64,000 nucleotides of DNA from a bacterium (lineage in GTDB: Bacteria; UBA8248). The DNA lies in assembly GCA_965200245.1 (NCBI GenBank), contig CBDATS010000002.1, forward strand, positions 224,001 to 288,000. The letters run 5' to 3'. The position numbers were made by a program, and so were the translations under genes. Every line of letters begins with the position of its first letter. The stretch's first letter is position 1. Shown here piece after piece: positions 19,283 to 42,998 of this stretch. Below the pieces are notes generated by a model. That model searched no databases. It saw only the letters and a list, made by a program, of their open reading frames with translations, and had not been told where the DNA came from.

Positions 19283-19331
19283 GTCCATCTCCCGCGAATA
19301 CGGGCAAATACGCCGTCGCGAAATTCCGGAA

Positions 19332-19449
19332 CTACATACTTGAATCCACAAGTCTGAATACCTGAATTTTGGAAAGACGGACTCTACGGCCGCCGGTTTC
19401 CCGGGAGAGCGGGGACACACGGACGGGGTTCCGGGAGGAAGCCTGTTCC
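19332..19449 (+). promoter_or_regulatory. conserved non-coding element upstream of NHLP precursor 1
   Basis: Aligns nearly ungapped with 38413-38530 upstream of NHLP precursor 2. Confidence 0.7.
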
Positions 19450-19574
19450 TCACCGGAAAAACCCCAAAAATTCTTGCGTTCCCATCGGAATATCCCATAT
19501 CCTGTTCATGATGCAAAAAAAACGGAAGCATTGGGGTATCCTCCCCACATTTTCTCGGGAAAGGAGACAGGAAC

Positions 19575-19841
19575 ATGAAGACAGCGGCCGAGATGCGGCA
19601 GCAGCTGAGTGAGAAGGCAGGCACGGACGAGGCGTTCCGGCAGAAACTGCTCGACGACCCGCGCGGCACGATCGAAAGCGAGTTCGATGTCGCCCTGCCG
19701 GCCGGTTTTTCGGTTTCGGTGCTCGAGGACAGTGCGGATCATGCGCATCTGGTGATCCCGCCCTCGTCGCTGATCCCCGACAGCGACCTCGAGAGCGTCA
19801 GCGGCGGGGCTCCATGGTACAATGATGGTTGGCCAGAATGA
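19575..19841 (+). CDS. NHLP (nitrile hydratase-like leader) RiPP precursor, predicted core APWYNDGWPE
   Basis: KA.TDEAFRQKLL.DPR..IE, LP....V.EDS....HLVIPP, DLESVSGG double-Gly; RBS AAGGAG. Confidence 0.88.
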   Translation: MKTAAEMRQQLSEKAGTDEAFRQKLLDDPRGTIESEFDVALPAGFSVSVLEDSADHAHLVIPPSSLIPDSDLESVSGGAPWYNDGWPE

Positions 19842-20212
19842 CCTGGAGACACAAGTTGAAAGACGCCAGTGACGGCGATTATTGGGACGATGCTCGCAGG
19901 TATCAGGGAGATTGGGGTGTCACGATTTCCTGCCCCGGACGGCAACTGATCGTCCAGGGGAAACAGGCCTTTTACCAAAACGCGCGGGTGAGGGTGCCTG
20001 GCGGGCGTTTCTGGCGGCCCGTGGCGTCGAAACTGTCCGGCGCGAGCCAGTGGTCGTGTGCCTGGCGGACAGCAGATCATTCCTCCCGGGTGAGGGAAAA
20101 CCAGGCCGTATCGCGGCTGCGTCCCCTGACGATCACGGTTGATATCAATAAGGGAATTTATATGCGAAACTGCCCACTTTCGGGTTACTGTCAGTTCCGG
20201 TGTATGGGCTGA
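19838..20212 (+). CDS. hypothetical Trp-rich ORF coupled to NHLP stop (possible second core cassette)
   Basis: ATGA overlap with precursor stop; begins MTWRHKLKDASDG-DYWDDARRYQGDWGV. Confidence 0.3.
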   Translation: MTWRHKLKDASDGDYWDDARRYQGDWGVTISCPGRQLIVQGKQAFYQNARVRVPGGRFWRPVASKLSGASQWSCAWRTADHSSRVRENQAVSRLRPLTITVDINKGIYMRNCPLSGYCQFRCMG

Positions 20213-20820
20213 ATGGAAGAAGGCGGCGCATATACTGGTTCTGACAGTAATTCCGCCTGTGACGCAAAACAATACACCCGGAAAACGCAAAATCAGGATA
20301 CTCAGACCTGCGGATTAAGTAGATAATTCCCCGGAATTCTGATCCGAAAAATACCGGCAAATAATCGATAAATTACTTTAGATATTCATGATAACCATTT
20401 GATATTATTTGAATATTTATTTTATTTTACCATAAACATTTTATTGATTCATCGTATTTTCCAGAATTGTGAAATCAGCGCGCATTGATTCGATCCAGGC
20501 ATATTGAATCGCCTGAGCACCTGTTTTCGTCCCGACAGGCCTCCCGCCCTTTCCACAGGATCGGCGAGAAAATCCGTGCGTCAGATGCCGCGGCCTTGAC
20601 GTCAAATACGGGAAATTGCGTGCCGGGGGCAAAGGCCAATGCGCGGATCAGGACAAACAGCGACATGGAAACAGTGGCTTCCAGGTCCTCACGGTGTTCA
20701 GTGGTTCATACAGCCCACACTGGCAGGCAAGATGGAGCGCTGGCCCGTATCTTCAGAGTCTCGTCGGATGTGATCGGTACGTTCTGTTCCTGCAGAATCT
20801 TTTCCTGTCCCGAAAAAACC

Positions 20821-37637: not shown

Positions 37638-38075
37638 ATGAGTTTCTACAACTGGGACATGCTGCCCCTGAGCCACGATCGCCCCGGCGTCGCGCACAGA
37701 AGGATTTTCGGCGACAACATCCAGATGCAGCACCTGATCACCGAGCCCGGCGGGACGCCCTCCAAACTGCACAGCCATCCCGATCACGAGGAGTTCTTCT
37801 ACATCCAAGCGGGCGAGTGGGAGTTCACGCTCGAAGACGAGGTACGGCGCGTGGGACCCGGGGACGTAGTGCACGTCCGGGCGGGCGCGATGCATACGTT
37901 GAAACTCGTGAGCGATGAGCCGGGAATGGCGCTCGAGGTGTTCTACCCGATGTGGAACCCCGAACTCGCGGGGAGCATGAAGGATTTCACGATAGACGCC
38001 ATCAAGGGCCGCATGGAGTTCGCGGAGGAACCGGACGAAATGAACCGGGGCCGCCCGCCCGGACGAACGGAATGA
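37638..38075 (+). CDS. cupin domain protein
   Basis: LHSHPDHEEFFY..G, GPGDVV.V.AG..H. Confidence 0.85.
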   Translation: MSFYNWDMLPLSHDRPGVAHRRIFGDNIQMQHLITEPGGTPSKLHSHPDHEEFFYIQAGEWEFTLEDEVRRVGPGDVVHVRAGAMHTLKLVSDEPGMALEVFYPMWNPELAGSMKDFTIDAIKGRMEFAEEPDEMNRGRPPGRTE

Positions 38076-38079
38076 TGGA

Positions 38080-38148
38080 GAGAAACCAGGGGCGGCAAGG
38101 TTTTTTGCCGCGGGTGAATTTGCCGGAATTTTCCCCGGTGAACACAAA
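38080..38148 (+). repeat. 69-bp direct repeat, copy 1
   Basis: Ungapped match to 39058-39126; core 38098-38148 has 44/51 identities. Confidence 0.8.
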
Positions 38149-38186
38149 CAGACAGGCGGTGCCTCCCGACACCGCCTGTCTGTTTT
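38146..38186. terminator. intrinsic terminator-like hairpin
   Basis: 16-bp perfect stem aaacagacaggcggtg / caccgcctgtctgttt with 8-nt loop, between convergent genes. Confidence 0.75.
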
Positions 38187-38231
38187 CTGATTCCCCTTGA
38201 TGTTCCGTCTCAGGTAACACCAAGGGTTTGC

Positions 38232-38327
38232 TTACGGCTTCTTGAGAACCCTCTTTCGGGAGCGAGGCGTCTTCATGACCCTCAGGAGAGATGTTTCAAG
38301 GGCGGTTACTATCAAGTTTCTTGCCAT
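38232..38327 (-). CDS. 31-aa basic small protein
   Basis: MARNLIVTALETSLLRVMKTPRSRKRVLKKP; RBS GAGGAGG; own promoter and terminator. Confidence 0.55.
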   Translation of the reverse strand: MARNLIVTALETSLLRVMKTPRSRKRVLKKP

Positions 38328-38368
38328 GACAGCCCTCCTCTTACGACTTTCTAACCCGTACCCAACGT

Positions 38369-38397
38369 AATATATCGAAAGGCAGTATCCGTGTCAA
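38369..38397 (-). promoter_or_regulatory. sigma70-type promoter
   Basis: TTGACA-N17-TATATT on the minus strand. Confidence 0.7.
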
Positions 38398-38412
38398 GTA
38401 TTTGGGGGGGGT

Positions 38413-38530
38413 CTACATACTTAATTCCACAAGTCCTATTCCCTGAATTCTGGCAAAACGGCTACTTCGGCCGCCGGTTTCCCGGGAAATCGGGGAACAT
38501 GCGGACGGGCTTCCGGGAGGAGCCTGTTCC
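38413..38530 (+). promoter_or_regulatory. conserved non-coding element upstream of NHLP precursor 2
   Basis: Homologous to 19332-19449. Confidence 0.7.
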
Positions 38531-38591
38531 CCAACAGAAAAACGAAACAGGATATCAAACCATACTCGTTACTCCAGGACAGGAGACCCAA

Positions 38592-38855
38592 GTGAAATCT
38601 CTTTCCGGGATGCGCGAGCACCTGATCGGGAAGGCAGGCGACAGTGAGGAGTTCCGTGCCCGTCTTATCTCCGAACCGAGGGCCGTGGTATCCGGGGAGT
38701 TCGGAATCGCGGTGCCGGAGACTTTCAACCTGCATGTGATGGAAGACGACGCCGAGAACAGCTATCTCGTCCTTCCGCCTTCGGCCCGGCTCACTGAGGA
38801 AGAACTGGAATCCGTTCACGGTAGCTATGGTTTCGAAGATCCCGGCAGGTGGTAG
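38592..38855 (+). CDS. NHLP RiPP precursor, predicted core (S)YGFEDPGRW
   Basis: GTG after AGGAG; KAGDSEEFRARLISEPR, VP....HV.EDD....LVLPP..RLTEEELESVHGS. Confidence 0.85.
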   Translation: MKSLSGMREHLIGKAGDSEEFRARLISEPRAVVSGEFGIAVPETFNLHVMEDDAENSYLVLPPSARLTEEELESVHGSYGFEDPGRW

Positions 38856-38856
38856 T

Positions 38857-38937
38857 ATGCCACTCGCTTCTCAGCGGCTGGAAAGCACCCGCGGCAGCTA
38901 TGGTTGGCAGCTATGGTTTCAACGATGGTCATATTAG
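38857..38937 (+). CDS. 26-aa mini-ORF: truncated leader end + alternative core
   Basis: ATG 1 nt after precursor stop; MPLASQRLESTRGS-YGWQLWFQRWSY; contains 13-bp tandem duplication GGCAGCTATGGTT (38893-38918). Confidence 0.35.
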   Translation: MPLASQRLESTRGSYGWQLWFQRWSY

Positions 38938-39057
38938 AACATAAAGGAAATCACAGAGGAGGGGGTTTTCTCGTAGATGGAGATGACGGACGAGGGGCAG
39001 CTGGCGATGCTGGTCTAACAGGTGCTTCATTGTGTCTTTTTCTGTCTATGTTTTCAG

Positions 39058-39126
39058 GAGAAATCAGAGACAACGAGGCTTTTTGCCGCAGGTGGATTTC
39101 CCGGGATTTTCTCCGGCGAACACAAA
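39058..39126 (+). repeat. 69-bp direct repeat, copy 2
   Basis: Matches 38080-38148 at offset 978. Confidence 0.8.
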
Positions 39127-39141
39127 AAAACAGGGATTTGA

Positions 39142-39495
39142 TCAAGCAAAATTTGTTTCACCTTTGAAACTTGTACGAAGTTTAAGTGTCACCGGTTCAC
39201 TTTCTCTATGAATATTCTTGGCCGTGACCTCTACCGCATATTCAGTATCCGGTTTCAAGTTCACAAAACTGCATTCAGTGATGGGTGTTTCAACTCCAAC
39301 GAGCCAATCAACCGCACCCACCTCTTTTATACGAATAATGTACGTAATTGGCGGAGTCCACTGCACTTCTATCCCATTTGATATTTTTGGGATATCTTTT
39401 ATTTTGGTCAACTTTATGTGGAAAGTTTTTGTCTGTGAATTCCATGAAACGGGAGGCTGATTCTGCTTTACGGTTGACCAGGGATTCTCATTCAT
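39142..39495 (-). CDS. fibronectin type III domain protein
   Basis: VQWTPP..Y.I, NLKPDTEY.VEVTAKN...SEP; low-GC gene. Confidence 0.7.
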   Translation of the reverse strand: MNENPWSTVKQNQPPVSWNSQTKTFHIKLTKIKDIPKISNGIEVQWTPPITYIIRIKEVGAVDWLVGVETPITECSFVNLKPDTEYAVEVTAKNIHRESEPVTLKLRTSFKGETNFA

Positions 39496-39498
39496 TTT

Positions 39499-39819
39499 CT
39501 AACCCTGCCCCTCTTCCCTTCCAAGACTTTTCCACTGATAAACGGAACTCTCATCTGGCTGACTCGTGAACGCACCCAATAAACCTTCAATTGCAGCAAT
39601 ACGGCTTCCGAGGCTCATGCTTGTGTCTGCCATTCGTTCCCCTGTGCGCTTTATCTAGTTTTGAACCTCTCGAATATCGGTTTTCAATTCCCCCGTCCGA
39701 GTATGAATATCGGTTTTCAATTCTCTTATTTGGATATAAAGAAAAGCTGCAAGGGCTATAAGAGCACCTCCGAGAGTTATGAAAATACCTATGAGAGAAA
39801 GTATCTCGTTAAACTTCAT
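39499..39819 (-). pseudogene. membrane-anchored coiled-coil protein relic
   Basis: MKFNEILSLIGIFITLGGALIALAAFLYIQ, frameshift, then ELKTDI repeats (19-bp repeat at 39672 and 39705), TAG, then RIAAIEG. Confidence 0.5.
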
Positions 39820-40290
39820 ATTTCTCTCCCCCGATTTATTTAGTCATTTGATGTAGGCAATATAGTGATAGGGATGGGGCGAAAGCAACCACTGAGGAGT
39901 TAAAGATAGTAGTTTTTGGTAAAATAACCGAGCAGTGTTTTGCGGGAGTTGGTATATAAATCCCAAAACATGTCTACCGAGGTCCACGGGGAGAGAAAGA
40001 CCCAAAGATGTTATCGAGTGTGCCGTTCGTGTTGCCCAGAGAGCAACAGGTGAAGTAGTGGCAACTCAAACGGAAGGCCAAGCAAATGCCTGCAAGATCG
40101 GCCACATATAAACGAGAAATCTCACCCCAGAACACAGAAAAGAGATCACGCAAAACGTCGCAGCGGTGTGGTGGGAAACTATTTTAGCCTCCCCAATGTC
40201 ATTAAATTTCAAGTCCTTACATTTCAACACATTACCTGAAAATATCATGCCGGAAGATCACCACCTCTCCCGACTCGTCCCATTGCGCAG

Positions 40291-41400
40291 CTAGGTCTCG
40301 ATGACAGCGGCGACAACGCCTCCGCCCACCGGCCCCTGGTGGAACACGAGGCCCGCAGAGACGTAGACCGCCGGGTCCTGCAGCACCGAGGCGATGACGG
40401 CGTTCGCAACCGCGCGCACGGGCCGCGTGCCCAGAACCGAATCCGTCAAGAGCGTGACCCGCTTGCCCAGGAGCCTGCCGTCCCAGGGCGCGCCCGCCTT
40501 TGCGAAGGCGTGCACCACCCTGCTCAGATCCTCCTGGCCTGGCAGAGCATCGAAGGCGAGACCCGCGTTCCTGAGCGCCTGCCTTACGGCGTCGGCGTCG
40601 ATCAGGTTTTGCATCACCGCACGGCCAATCCTGTAGCGACTCACGGATTGTGAGGAATTCGCCAGAACGACGACTTCAGAGCGCATGAGTTCCACACCCG
40701 CCGAGCAGGAGATCATCTCCGAGTACAAATCGCCTCGGCTGCAAACGTCGGATATCTCGAACGACTCGCGGGCAATTTCCCCGATGCCCACCGCCGCGCC
40801 CAAGGCCGAGCAACCGTTGGAGAGGCTCATCGATCGTGTGGTGTCCGTGCTGACCACTTTCTTGCCGCGCGAGGCCGCGTCGTTGATGCGATCAGACGTC
40901 AAAAGGGGGCACTTCACCTGCACGTAGCCTACATCGTCAAGCGAGTCTACGCCCGCCTTGTCGAGCGCCTCCGCCGCCGCCTCGGCCACGAGGTCCACCT
41001 GGGCCATCGTGCCCAGTTCCTCGGGCAAAAGTTCACGGGTGAAGGCAACTCCCATGGAGAGGCGCTTCTCTCCGGGACTTTCTGCGTCGCCCACATCGGT
41101 CCTGGAAAAAGCCACCGCGTGGGGACTCATCACCCCCTCGCATCCTCCCGACATCACCATCGCACACATGCCCTGCACCTCGGAACGTGTGAACCCCAGT
41201 TTCTCCATCATATAGTCCTCGAAGGAGTGAAGTGCGTAGGGCCTCGAATAGTCGTTCACTCGCCCGTTGCCCTCCGTCTTGGCGATAATGGCCTGAATGT
41301 CTGCCGCCCGGATGAGGCCTCTCTCCACCGCTTCCGCGAGCCCCGAGACGTCCTCGGGTCCCGACATCTGAAACTTCACCACCTGGGTATCGAACACCAT
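40291..41400 (-). CDS. ring-opening amidohydrolase (cyanuric acid hydrolase AtzD/barbiturase family)
   Basis: P.DVSGL, KTEGNG.VND.SR, MSGG.EGV.SPH, VQVKCPLLT, SCSAG.EL, HQGP.GGG. Confidence 0.92.
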   Translation of the reverse strand: MVFDTQVVKFQMSGPEDVSGLAEAVERGLIRAADIQAIIAKTEGNGRVNDYSRPYALHSFEDYMMEKLGFTRSEVQGMCAMVMSGGCEGVMSPHAVAFSRTDVGDAESPGEKRLSMGVAFTRELLPEELGTMAQVDLVAEAAAEALDKAGVDSLDDVGYVQVKCPLLTSDRINDAASRGKKVVSTDTTRSMSLSNGCSALGAAVGIGEIARESFEISDVCSRGDLYSEMISCSAGVELMRSEVVVLANSSQSVSRYRIGRAVMQNLIDADAVRQALRNAGLAFDALPGQEDLSRVVHAFAKAGAPWDGRLLGKRVTLLTDSVLGTRPVRAVANAVIASVLQDPAVYVSAGLVFHQGPVGGGVVAAVIET

Positions 41401-41448
41401 TGCACCTCCTCAGAATTCATATGGAACGCCCGATGCACGAGCGCCGTA

Positions 41449-42852
41449 TTAATCTCCCGGTACCATCAGGCCAGCGCGTTCAACAATGGCTGCGGACGCC
41501 GCCTGCGCCTCCTCTCGAATCATGCGCTCCTCGTCCTCGCTCACCCTAGTGAGACGCCCCGCCTCCATGAGCGGCTCACCGTCCACCCAGGCCCATCGCA
41601 CCTCCGTCCCATGGGCTTGATATGCAAGAATGGAGGGCAGATGATGATTCGGGAACATGTGGGGACCGTTCATGTCGATCAGAATCACGTCCGCACGCTT
41701 CCCCACCTCGATGCTGCCTGTCTCGGCTTCCATGCCGAGGACGCGCGCTCCGTTTCGCGTGGCCATGTCGAGTACCTGCTGGGCCGTAATGGCGGCGGGG
41801 TCCTGCTGCAACCCCTTGTGAAGCAGACAGGCGAGCCTGACCTCCCAGAACATGTTGGCGAGGTCGTTGCAATTCGCGTTGTCCGTCCCCAGGGCCACGG
41901 GAACACCGTAGCCCAGCATACGCGGCACCGGCGAGACGCCAGATCCCAGATACATGTTGCTCGAGGGCAGATGCACCACCTGCGTCCCTGATTCCTTCAG
42001 CAGCCGCACGTCCTCCTCGCTCAGGTGGATGCAGTGTCCCGCCACGAGGCGCTCGGAGAGCAGACCCCAGGCTGCGAGATGCTGCACGACCGGGAGGCCG
42101 CAAACTTCCGATTCCATGGGGTCTTCCGAGACGTGTGTGGAGACGCGAAGGCCGCGCGCTCCGGCCCATTCGTCCACCTCACGGAACGTTTCGGGCCTGA
42201 CGTACACGGGAATGTTCGGCCCCGGCCAGACGAGTACCCGGCCATTCGAGCGTCCATGGTATCTCTCCACCAGATACGCGATCTCTTCGAAAACCTCATC
42301 CCGCGTCTTGAGGCTCGGGGGAAACATCTTCCCCCAGGCGGCGATGTGCGATCGCGCCCGATCGGCGAGTTTTCCCTGTGGCGGTATCTCGTTGAAGCTC
42401 AGGGCAAAGACGCTCCTCATGCCGGTATTGTCCATCGCCTCTATCATCGCCTCGGCCAGCGGGATGGGGATGCGCTCGTTCGTCACCACAGCAGTCGTGC
42501 CCGAGCGAATCGCCTCACACGCGAAGAGTTTCACCGAGAGCACCGCATCCTCCGGGGTGTAGACCACCTGGCCGGGGGCCATCACGTTCAGGCGCCAGTC
42601 CATGAGCCGCCTGTCAGCACCCAGACCGCCCCTCAGCAGGATGCACATGATATGACTGTGGGCATTCACCAGTCCCGGCATGAGCGCCATGCCCTCTGCG
42701 TCGATCACCCGAGCGGAGCCCGCATTTGTCCTGGAAGCAGAAATTTCCGCGATGCGGCCGTCCTCGACCAGCACCGACGCACGGGGGATGACCTCACGTT
42801 CCTCGTTCTGGGTGAGGACGCGTACGTTTTCGATCAGGAAACGATCCGCCAA
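41449..42852 (-). CDS. metal-dependent amidohydrolase/deaminase (AtzA/MtaD-like)
   Basis: MPGLVNAHSH, THVSE, GHC.HL, P.SNM.LGSG, LGTD, GSIEVGKRAD. Confidence 0.9.
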   Translation of the reverse strand: MADRFLIENVRVLTQNEEREVIPRASVLVEDGRIAEISASRTNAGSARVIDAEGMALMPGLVNAHSHIMCILLRGGLGADRRLMDWRLNVMAPGQVVYTPEDAVLSVKLFACEAIRSGTTAVVTNERIPIPLAEAMIEAMDNTGMRSVFALSFNEIPPQGKLADRARSHIAAWGKMFPPSLKTRDEVFEEIAYLVERYHGRSNGRVLVWPGPNIPVYVRPETFREVDEWAGARGLRVSTHVSEDPMESEVCGLPVVQHLAAWGLLSERLVAGHCIHLSEEDVRLLKESGTQVVHLPSSNMYLGSGVSPVPRMLGYGVPVALGTDNANCNDLANMFWEVRLACLLHKGLQQDPAAITAQQVLDMATRNGARVLGMEAETGSIEVGKRADVILIDMNGPHMFPNHHLPSILAYQAHGTEVRWAWVDGEPLMEAGRLTRVSEDEERMIREEAQAASAAIVERAGLMVPGD

Positions 42853-42998
42853 AGGAGAATCCTCCGTTTCGGGTTTTTTTCCGAGAATACGACAATCGGG
42901 CGGATTTGAGTATCCCCGGCGCAAACTGTGCCTTGCCAGAGAGCGAAAAGAGCATTAAAAGTGTGGGAGATAATCCGACAACCCGAGGAGAGACGCCG

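Follow-up and report, generated by a model that had tools for sequence, protein, structure and literature searches.

The leader end and core start of the NHLP-type precursor gene at 38592 occur a second time, without a leader, directly behind that gene in the 64,000-nucleotide stretch of bacterial DNA analysed here (the window), and the presence of this orphan junction is not due to chance. The segment 38857-38944 is probably a leaderless 'cleavage site + core' module, which was stranded by recombination among near-identical precursor copies, is not matured, and was re-framed by slippage at a later time. The features are collected in Table 1; positions given without a contig name are those of the window.

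Table 1. Features of the 38592 locus and of the second example in the window
Feature	Position	Strand	Remarks
Complete cassette, second example	19327..20331	+	both repeats; 8-bp flanks 7/8
Divergent type-B precursor in the 19327 cassette	19575-19841	+
Orphan type-A junction in the 19327 cassette	from 19856	+	Gly(-2) -> Asp, stop lost
Degenerate left terminal inverted repeat	38408..38433	+	5/26 mismatches; terminal bases replaced by a G run
Shared cassette 5' region	38434..38591	+	shorter here than in most paralogs
RBS of the 87-aa precursor	about 38581-38586	+
NHLP precursor, 87 aa	38592..38855	+	GTG start, TAG stop; ends LESVHGS|YGFEDPGRW
Leader of the 87-aa precursor	38592-38825	+	bears L(X)4L and the GS motif for cleavage, the cut being placed by comparison with 25 paralogs
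Expressed copy of the 36-nt leader-end/core-start junction	38805..38840	+
Core YGFEDPGRW	38826-38852	+
Shine-Dalgarno-like sequence	38847..38851	+	within the last core codons, 5 nt before ATG 38857
26-aa ORF MPLASQRLESTRGSYGWQLWFQRWSY	38857..38937	+	14 leader-like residues followed by the Trp-rich tail YGWQLWFQRWSY in a shifted frame; folded NHLP domain absent
Orphan (leaderless) junction copy	38878..38926	+	27/36 identical to 38805-38840, duplication skipped; 73 nt downstream of the first junction
Exact 13-bp tandem duplication	38893-38905/38906-38918	+	shifts the frame
Tail as read in the presumed older frame, GSYGFNDGHIRT-stop	38906..38944	+

The precursor gene and the junction copy behind it

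The 87-aa gene reached 64.8 bits against the TIGR03793 leader_NHLP model (cut-off 50.9) and, besides this leader score, it has the L(X)4L motif, the double-Gly-type motif and the short core of NHLP/proteusin precursors. The core ends in Trp. The neighbouring genes encode a cupin, a small fibronectin-III protein and amidohydrolases; no maturase gene was found among them, and neither a terminator nor a sigma-70 promoter of the + strand was called across 38050-39250.

Some further elements were observed around the gene. A cyanuric acid amidohydrolase gene (AtzD, above cut-off; 40291-42924, minus strand) adjoins a TRZ/ATZ-like amidohydrolase. The precursor region is flanked by a 77-bp direct repeat (38080-38156 and 39058-39134, 80.5% identical, about 980 bp apart), of which no further copy was detected in the genome at E<0.5. 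The non-coding block at 39393-39868 is 90% identical over 279 bp to C15:100436-100834; it lies 5' of the fibronectin-III gene in the window and 5' of a prenyltransferase-fold gene on C15, where it adjoins a precursor whose leader is 207/210 identical to that of the 38592 gene.

Every sequence detail reported in the original prediction was confirmed, that is the gap between stop and ATG, which is the single base 38856, the 13-bp tandem, the 27/36 identity and both reading frames. The homology of the orphan and its own precursor junction is limited to 36 nt; upstream of it 8/30 positions agree, and the next 15 nt add 2 matches only. When the orphan was scored against a junction profile built without the junction of its own gene, a value of 16.3 was obtained, which was reached by none of 3000 random 120-nt windows and by none of 200 shuffles. 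In a genome-wide nhmmer junction search the orphan appeared at E=9.9 only; its signal is visible by positional (post-stop) scoring. As a homolog of the older-frame tail the paralog C5:32492 was considered and rejected, since its score of 27 was within the null distribution.

The best match of the orphan is its own upstream junction (27/36, local score 36 compared with a shuffle maximum of 33), and the next best among 35 paralog junctions is 22/36. This would be expected after a local accident, namely a tandem duplication of about 73 nt of the 3' end of the gene itself, followed by neutral decay and slippage, with no paralog exchange; in the other 34 rows the match is at most 22/36, and the spacing of 73 nt equals one module length. 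However, the flanks beyond the 36 nt are at chance level, and of the 9 differences 7 fall within 4 neighbouring codons, where one Ser codon is replaced by another through two base changes and a further codon differs at all three bases. Judged from the sequence, these clustered differences look more like another allele than like point decay. The other four orphans of the genome (see below) match non-adjacent paralogs, and a purely local origin was considered unlikely.

The 13-bp repeat is the sole exact tandem of at least 8 nt among 31 distinct junction regions. Since the two 13-bp copies are still identical, and the junction copies have diverged at 9/36 positions, the re-framing appears to be the later event. 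Single contigs of three DNA runs (X1, X3 and X4; two studies, one possibly of the source sample) cover 38754-39300 without any difference or gap, thus the 13-bp duplication is not an assembly slip. In a repeat family an assembly artefact has to be weighed, as the leader is repeated about 36 times, contigs break in it, and the assembly (95.8% complete) has 8.1% contamination; in view of the three spanning contigs the probability of such an artefact is practically negligible.

The downstream frame had been taken for an alternative Trp-rich core. This did not hold: the Trp-rich frame is not joined to an NHLP leader, and it is atypical of the library. The 26-aa ORF matched 0 Pfam families, and with only 14 residues preceding its core it does not possess a folded NHLP leader. 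It keeps L(-12), L(-7), G(-2) and S(-1), its position -4 is Thr where 25/25 intact genes have V/A/I, and the acidic residues between the leucines of the leader motif are gone. The tail contains 3 Trp and no Asp or Glu, whereas no intact core exceeds 2 Trp and 20/23 contain Asp or Glu. No RNA contig was found over 38844-38979 in run X6 or over 38830-39020 in run X7, where paralog cores were present (contigs show presence, not absence), and the small share of run X8 showed other paralog cores only.

The ribosome site of this ORF (-7.0 kcal/mol, 5-nt spacer; true starts range from -5.6 to -9.3) and its ATG next to the stop would suit a functional mini-precursor, in which re-initiation after the stop gives a 26-aa peptide, the 14-residue leader suffices, the locus has two products, and the duplication replaced the second core wholesale. 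This explanation is the nearest to the view of the original prediction. It is favoured by the retained L(X)4L and GS, and by the enzyme SrpI, which accepts truncated leaders that keep LXXXXL (PMC10858898). An in-frame start was found within -4..+1 of the stop in 3/5 orphans (null 17%, P about 0.04) and within -21..+1 in 4/5 (null 28%, P about 0.02), both values being post hoc and the loci non-independent. However, in the other orphans with such coupled starts the cleavage motif is disrupted, the start is a weak TTG, or a stop is not found nearby. Furthermore, the leader-dependent ABBA prenyltransferase MppC is inactive on a precursor that lacks the folded part of its leader (PMC12715784), and no halogenase was found in the genome. 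Together with the Thr at -4, the lost acidic residues and the RNA contigs, which leave the ORF uncovered, this makes a functional mini-precursor quite improbable. The Trp-rich peptide, having no folded leader, is probably not made, and the tryptophan-rich reading is likely an accident of the recent 13-base duplication and not a real product; it would probably matter only if switching or translation came to light.

Orphan junctions and exchange between gene copies

The precursor family comprises 37 alignment rows, which correspond to about 36 genes. The 36 family matches are spread over the genome, in agreement with the dispersed RiPP library that had been proposed. TIGR03793 gave 39 matches in this genome and 0-9 in 41 relatives of the family, whose precursors, as far as they were examined, have conserved cores; 2 of the 39 matches lie in a frame of about 265 aa, which is probably a nitrile hydratase. 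All intact cores (23/23) contain Tyr or Trp, and there is 1 Cys in 200 core residues. The library cores being almost Cys-free, they are not lanthipeptides. Indels re-frame cores at expressed positions too (C4:1518077 and C4:571461/C8:199183), thus frameshifting is common in the family. Loose contig ends at 38810-38821 in runs X3, X4, X7 and X8 carry junction-core alleles that are absent from the assembly, hence the library differs between samples or strains. A type-A leader encloses a type-B precursor at C2:304598-305596 and C4:1959-2466, the type-A remainder (from residue ~13) having no start.

When the 120 nt after each stop were scored, a second junction was detected 14-35 nt past the stop in 7/30 rows, which represent 5/25 distinct loci; frameshifted or divergent rows, 7 in number, had been excluded from the scoring. 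Comparable second junctions are therefore present at 4 distinct loci besides the 38592 gene. The orphans scored 15.5-16.9, while the 99.5th percentile of the background was 10.3. Among the precursors of relatives 0/23 reached 12 (the highest values were 10.7 and 9.4), compared with 12.1-17.2 for the orphans under the same profile. Two of the orphans are of common ancestry (0/2000 shuffles), so there were at most 4 independent orphan events. The orphans break positions that are invariant in the 25 intact genes, with changes such as G(-2)->D and L(-7)->P in addition to the V/A/I(-4)->T of the 38878 orphan, and one of them has a 1-residue core. Core-only remnants after the stop were also seen at C4:1372381 and C2:305166.

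Only the 38878 orphan best matches its own upstream junction; 4/5 orphans best match other, non-adjacent paralogs. The claim of core shuffling was upheld at the level of the library, where leaders and cores are recombined. As for duplication, which had been suggested as its route, the self-match of the 38878 orphan speaks for it and the other four orphans leave it unproven in general.

The junction-to-junction spacings cluster at 68-77 nt and one orphan is in frame at 72 nt, which might point to relics of an ancestral two-core precursor (leader-core-linker-core, cyanobactin-like) that was later split by a stop. However, 4/5 orphans are out of frame, the inter-junction segments are mostly unrelated (1 clear pair in 10), and an intact two-core gene is absent from the 37 rows and from the 23 relative precursors. 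A stop codon separates the units at 5/5 orphan loci, so these are not multi-core genes of the cyanobactin type, and descent from such a gene is very improbable. A shared origin of the inter-junction segment at 38592 and that of C15:101578 (p=0.046, 1 of 10 pairs) was not accepted.

The clearest picture of a stranded module is given by the second example in the window. At 19575 a type-B gene is situated in a type-A cassette, ahead of the junction, core and 3' flank of type A (score 105; the null did not exceed 33). The whole 1005-bp unit at 19327 has a 100% identical twin on C15, which indicates that stacked precursor and orphan units move intact.

Exchange is also reflected in the intact genes. 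Compared with two paralogs, the leader of the 38592 gene is identical at 207/210 positions in codons 1-70, at 15/24 in the last eight leader codons and the core at 11-12/30. Pairwise differences among 14 type-A genes are at most 0.045 in codons 46-60, 0.30 in codons 71-75 and 0.68 in codons 81-85. Along the 5' region (38434-38591) the nearest paralog switches from C4:1427110 in the left part to C15:101578/C5:329354 in the RBS part. In a neighbour-incompatibility test (16 leaders, 29 sites) neighbouring sites were more compatible than shuffled ones (p=0.002), and all four combinations of start and core are present among 6 type-B genes. As a sequence pattern, the near-identical leaders are mosaics with a sharp divergence near codon 70. 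Because the identity collapses at about codon 70, the exchanged unit would consist of the last ~8 leader codons and the core, which matches the extent of the orphan. No reverse transcriptase, the hallmark of DGRs, was found in the genome (0 PF00078 matches, control positive in 3/14); a Y1 transposase was likewise not detected (0 PF01797 matches, controls positive).

The mobile cassette and the proposed history of the locus

The precursor family is carried by a cassette which has terminal inverted repeats and 8-bp target duplications and contains no transposase gene. The 26-nt end motif occurs 34 times in the genome, 29 of these within 2 kb of a precursor. By a mismatch search 8 inverted pairs were found, which bound elements of 663-999 bp, and further ends were obtained by an edit search. 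The 8-bp flanks of the 8 pairs match at 6, 2, 8, 7, 7, 8, 6 and 8 of 8 positions, that is at least 6/8 in 7 pairs. In the 38592 copy the left repeat is damaged, run X3 differs from the assembly in this repeat by one insertion and two substitutions, and no right repeat was found within 1200 nt. The best-kept cassette ends, at C4:570771-571728 and C8:198493-199450, carry a frameshifted precursor, therefore transposition does not track the function of the peptide.

Passenger-carrying non-autonomous IS elements are termed mobile insertion cassettes. The cassette resembles the non-autonomous elements of IS1595 in its inverted repeats starting with GG, the 8-bp duplications, the passenger gene and the lack of an internal transposase; unlike in those, the passenger here is a RiPP precursor, and the 38592 copy is damaged at the left and lacks its right end. 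Target duplications of 8 bp are typical of IS1595 (PMC8101967). One intact IS1595 gene is present in the genome, and its ends match the cassette in the first 8-9 bases only. No cognate transposase with the ends of the cassette was found in the genome, nor by eye in the flanks around exact-end matches elsewhere, and we infer that the mover is an IS1595-family transposase acting in trans.

The element at L055:1501-2229 (G034; 729 bp) has perfect copies of the same inverted repeat, 7/8 flanks and, as its cargo, two small ORFs that are unrelated, so precursors are not the only passengers of the cassette family. The same end motif was observed 3 times in an unrelated bacterial genome record (L072, L075 and L076), with no precursor or transposase in the 2.5 kb examined. 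At C4:988948 a cassette-like left end stands 5' of a CoA-transferase-like gene, and downstream of the C15:101578 orphan core there is a fragment resembling the start of that gene (both by eye). An IS1595 remnant at L003:1330-2863, bounded by 31-bp inverted repeats (87%), carries two small passenger genes which by eye resemble a toxin-antitoxin pair.

The history that we propose for the stranded module would be the following. The cassette, mobilized in trans, would have spread the precursor family over the genome. The leaders would then have recombined, the end of the leader and the core being exchanged as one unit. If the downstream join of such an exchange fell out of register, an incoming leader-core-stop would be placed before the resident junction, which would thereby be orphaned; the arrangement at 19575 fits this step most clearly, and at the 38592 locus a local duplication of about 73 nt may have had the same result. 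The orphan, freed from selection, would have been re-framed recently by the 13-bp slippage duplication, so that its Trp, Gln and Phe codons would have arisen by chance. The locus would yield YGFEDPGRW; an ABBA-fold enzyme whose gene lies at another place would likely prenylate it on Trp/Tyr, and the NHLP C39 transporter would export it.

The orphans could also serve as a reservoir of silent cores, which are switched on by deletion between the junction repeats; we regard this as rather unlikely. If it were so, one deletion would fuse the full leader to the Trp-rich tail (at the first 13-bp copy) or to the older tail (at the second copy), and a single locus would encode three alternative peptides. 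Until their activation the silent modules could drift and change frame without being under selection. Coupled to the mobile cassette, such a reservoir would parallel, for RiPPs, the antigenic variation that draws on silent cassettes, and it would offer a concrete mechanism for hypervariable cores. A skip of 73 or 86 nt, by which the full leader is fused to a stored core, was seen in none of the contigs of the three runs, contigs being prone to drop rare variants; in the raw-read runs X10 and X11 there were 13 and 12 reads, none of which extended beyond 38829. Like the silent pilE/pilS cassettes of Neisseria, the orphans are non-expressed partial copies with a conserved anchor and a variable region (5/25 loci here). 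In contrast to that system, there is no single expression site, no dedicated machinery was identified, the orphans look decayed, and no switching appeared in the contigs.

Modifying enzymes and comparison with known systems

An analogy with the brominating SrpI system had been drawn, which was not supported by the content of the genome. No PF04820 Trp halogenase was found in the 95.8%-complete genome (0 matches, control positive in 6/14), the single match of a halogenase motif turned out to be an oxidoreductase, and the Trp-rich ORF ends in Tyr, not in Trp. YcaO, PqqD/RRE and SPASM also gave 0 matches (controls positive), so that the genome search proposed in the original prediction, for RRE maturases and halogenases, returned neither. 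The same prediction was to be given up if the genome held no NHLP-modifying enzymes and if other loci had no comparable junction duplications; candidate modifiers and an NHLP exporter are present, as are the junction copies at the 4 other loci. The exporter is an NHLP C39 gene (TIGR03796, 902 vs 853 bits); a C39 domain is encoded at C8:222519-224708.

The candidate modifiers belong to an unnamed family of ~340-aa enzymes, for which there is no Pfam or NCBIfam model. It gave 12 profile rows with 4 full-length open frames, most of them within 3.6 kb of a precursor. The full-length frames are situated at C15:99063-100316, C8:325398-326591, C2:5567-6745 and C2:7332-8687. A structural model of one member (pLDDT 90) has a repeated helix-strand pattern, and the Foldseek matches listed were aromatic prenyltransferases only (best E 1.2e-5, TM about 0.4-0.6); a PDB sequence search with the enzyme gave no match. 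Based on the predicted fold, the family likely represents ABBA-fold prenyltransferases that modify the library. Since ABBA-fold enzymes lie near the precursors and 23/23 cores have Tyr or Trp, prenylation is the likely, predicted modification. The complex prediction for the C15 prenyltransferase-fold protein with the 87-aa precursor (0.22 and 0.18, mark 0.32) counts neither way.

Two members of the ~340-aa family are followed by squalene-cyclase-like genes (one by a weak Pfam match, one by eye). These neighbours may be likened to MppC/MppE and to the NctPC-type prenyltransferase-cyclases, reportedly described by Hubrich in 2024. As with MppC/MppE (PMC12715784), an ABBA-barrel family is found beside long-leader precursors with Trp/Tyr cores; unlike in those systems, there is no lanthionine here and no enzyme at the 38592 locus, and the likeness comes from a predicted fold. 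With the srp proteusins (PMC10858898) our system shares the NHLP leader with LXXXXL, a main precursor ending in Trp and, judging by the labels of the runs, the sponge-metagenome setting; it differs in that neither a PF04820 halogenase nor YcaO was found and in the Tyr end of the Trp-rich ORF.

The procA libraries are composed of dispersed precursors with a conserved long leader and a hypervariable core with indels; a transposase-linked expansion was proposed for them, a causal role of the transposase was later no longer supported, and the prochlorosin cores, according to the authors, do not derive from domain swapping (Laurenceau et al., bioRxiv 10.1101/2020.03.09.984088). The library described here has the same many dispersed precursors, long conserved leader and hypervariable, indel-bearing core. 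It is set apart from prochlorosins by its TIR/8-bp-TSD cassettes, its mosaic leaders and the stranded modules of junction and core; no Y1 transposase (TnpA-REP) was found, and Cys is nearly absent from the cores. The system behaves as a library of prochlorosin style driven by a mobile cassette, and it belongs to none of the srp, prochlorosin and DGR families. The mechanism by which a constant leader is combined with wholesale core replacement was left unresolved for prochlorosins (Laurenceau et al., bioRxiv 10.1101/2020.03.09.984088). This genome preserves intermediates, i.e. mobile copies, mosaic leaders breaking near the cleavage site and stranded old cores, therefore module swapping can be tested at five named loci.

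In the literature no account of orphan junction-core remnants or of transposon-borne NHLP precursors was found, subscription papers lying mostly outside the search, and a metagenome scan gave 1 unrelated locus only. In relatives (L049:6397-7698 and L050) an NHLP leader is fused to a squalene-cyclase-like domain in a 433-aa protein, the cluster of which also encodes a fusion of desaturase and GlnE, a protein judged YcaO-like by eye, a prenyltransferase-fold enzyme and a precursor of the LCCCW type.
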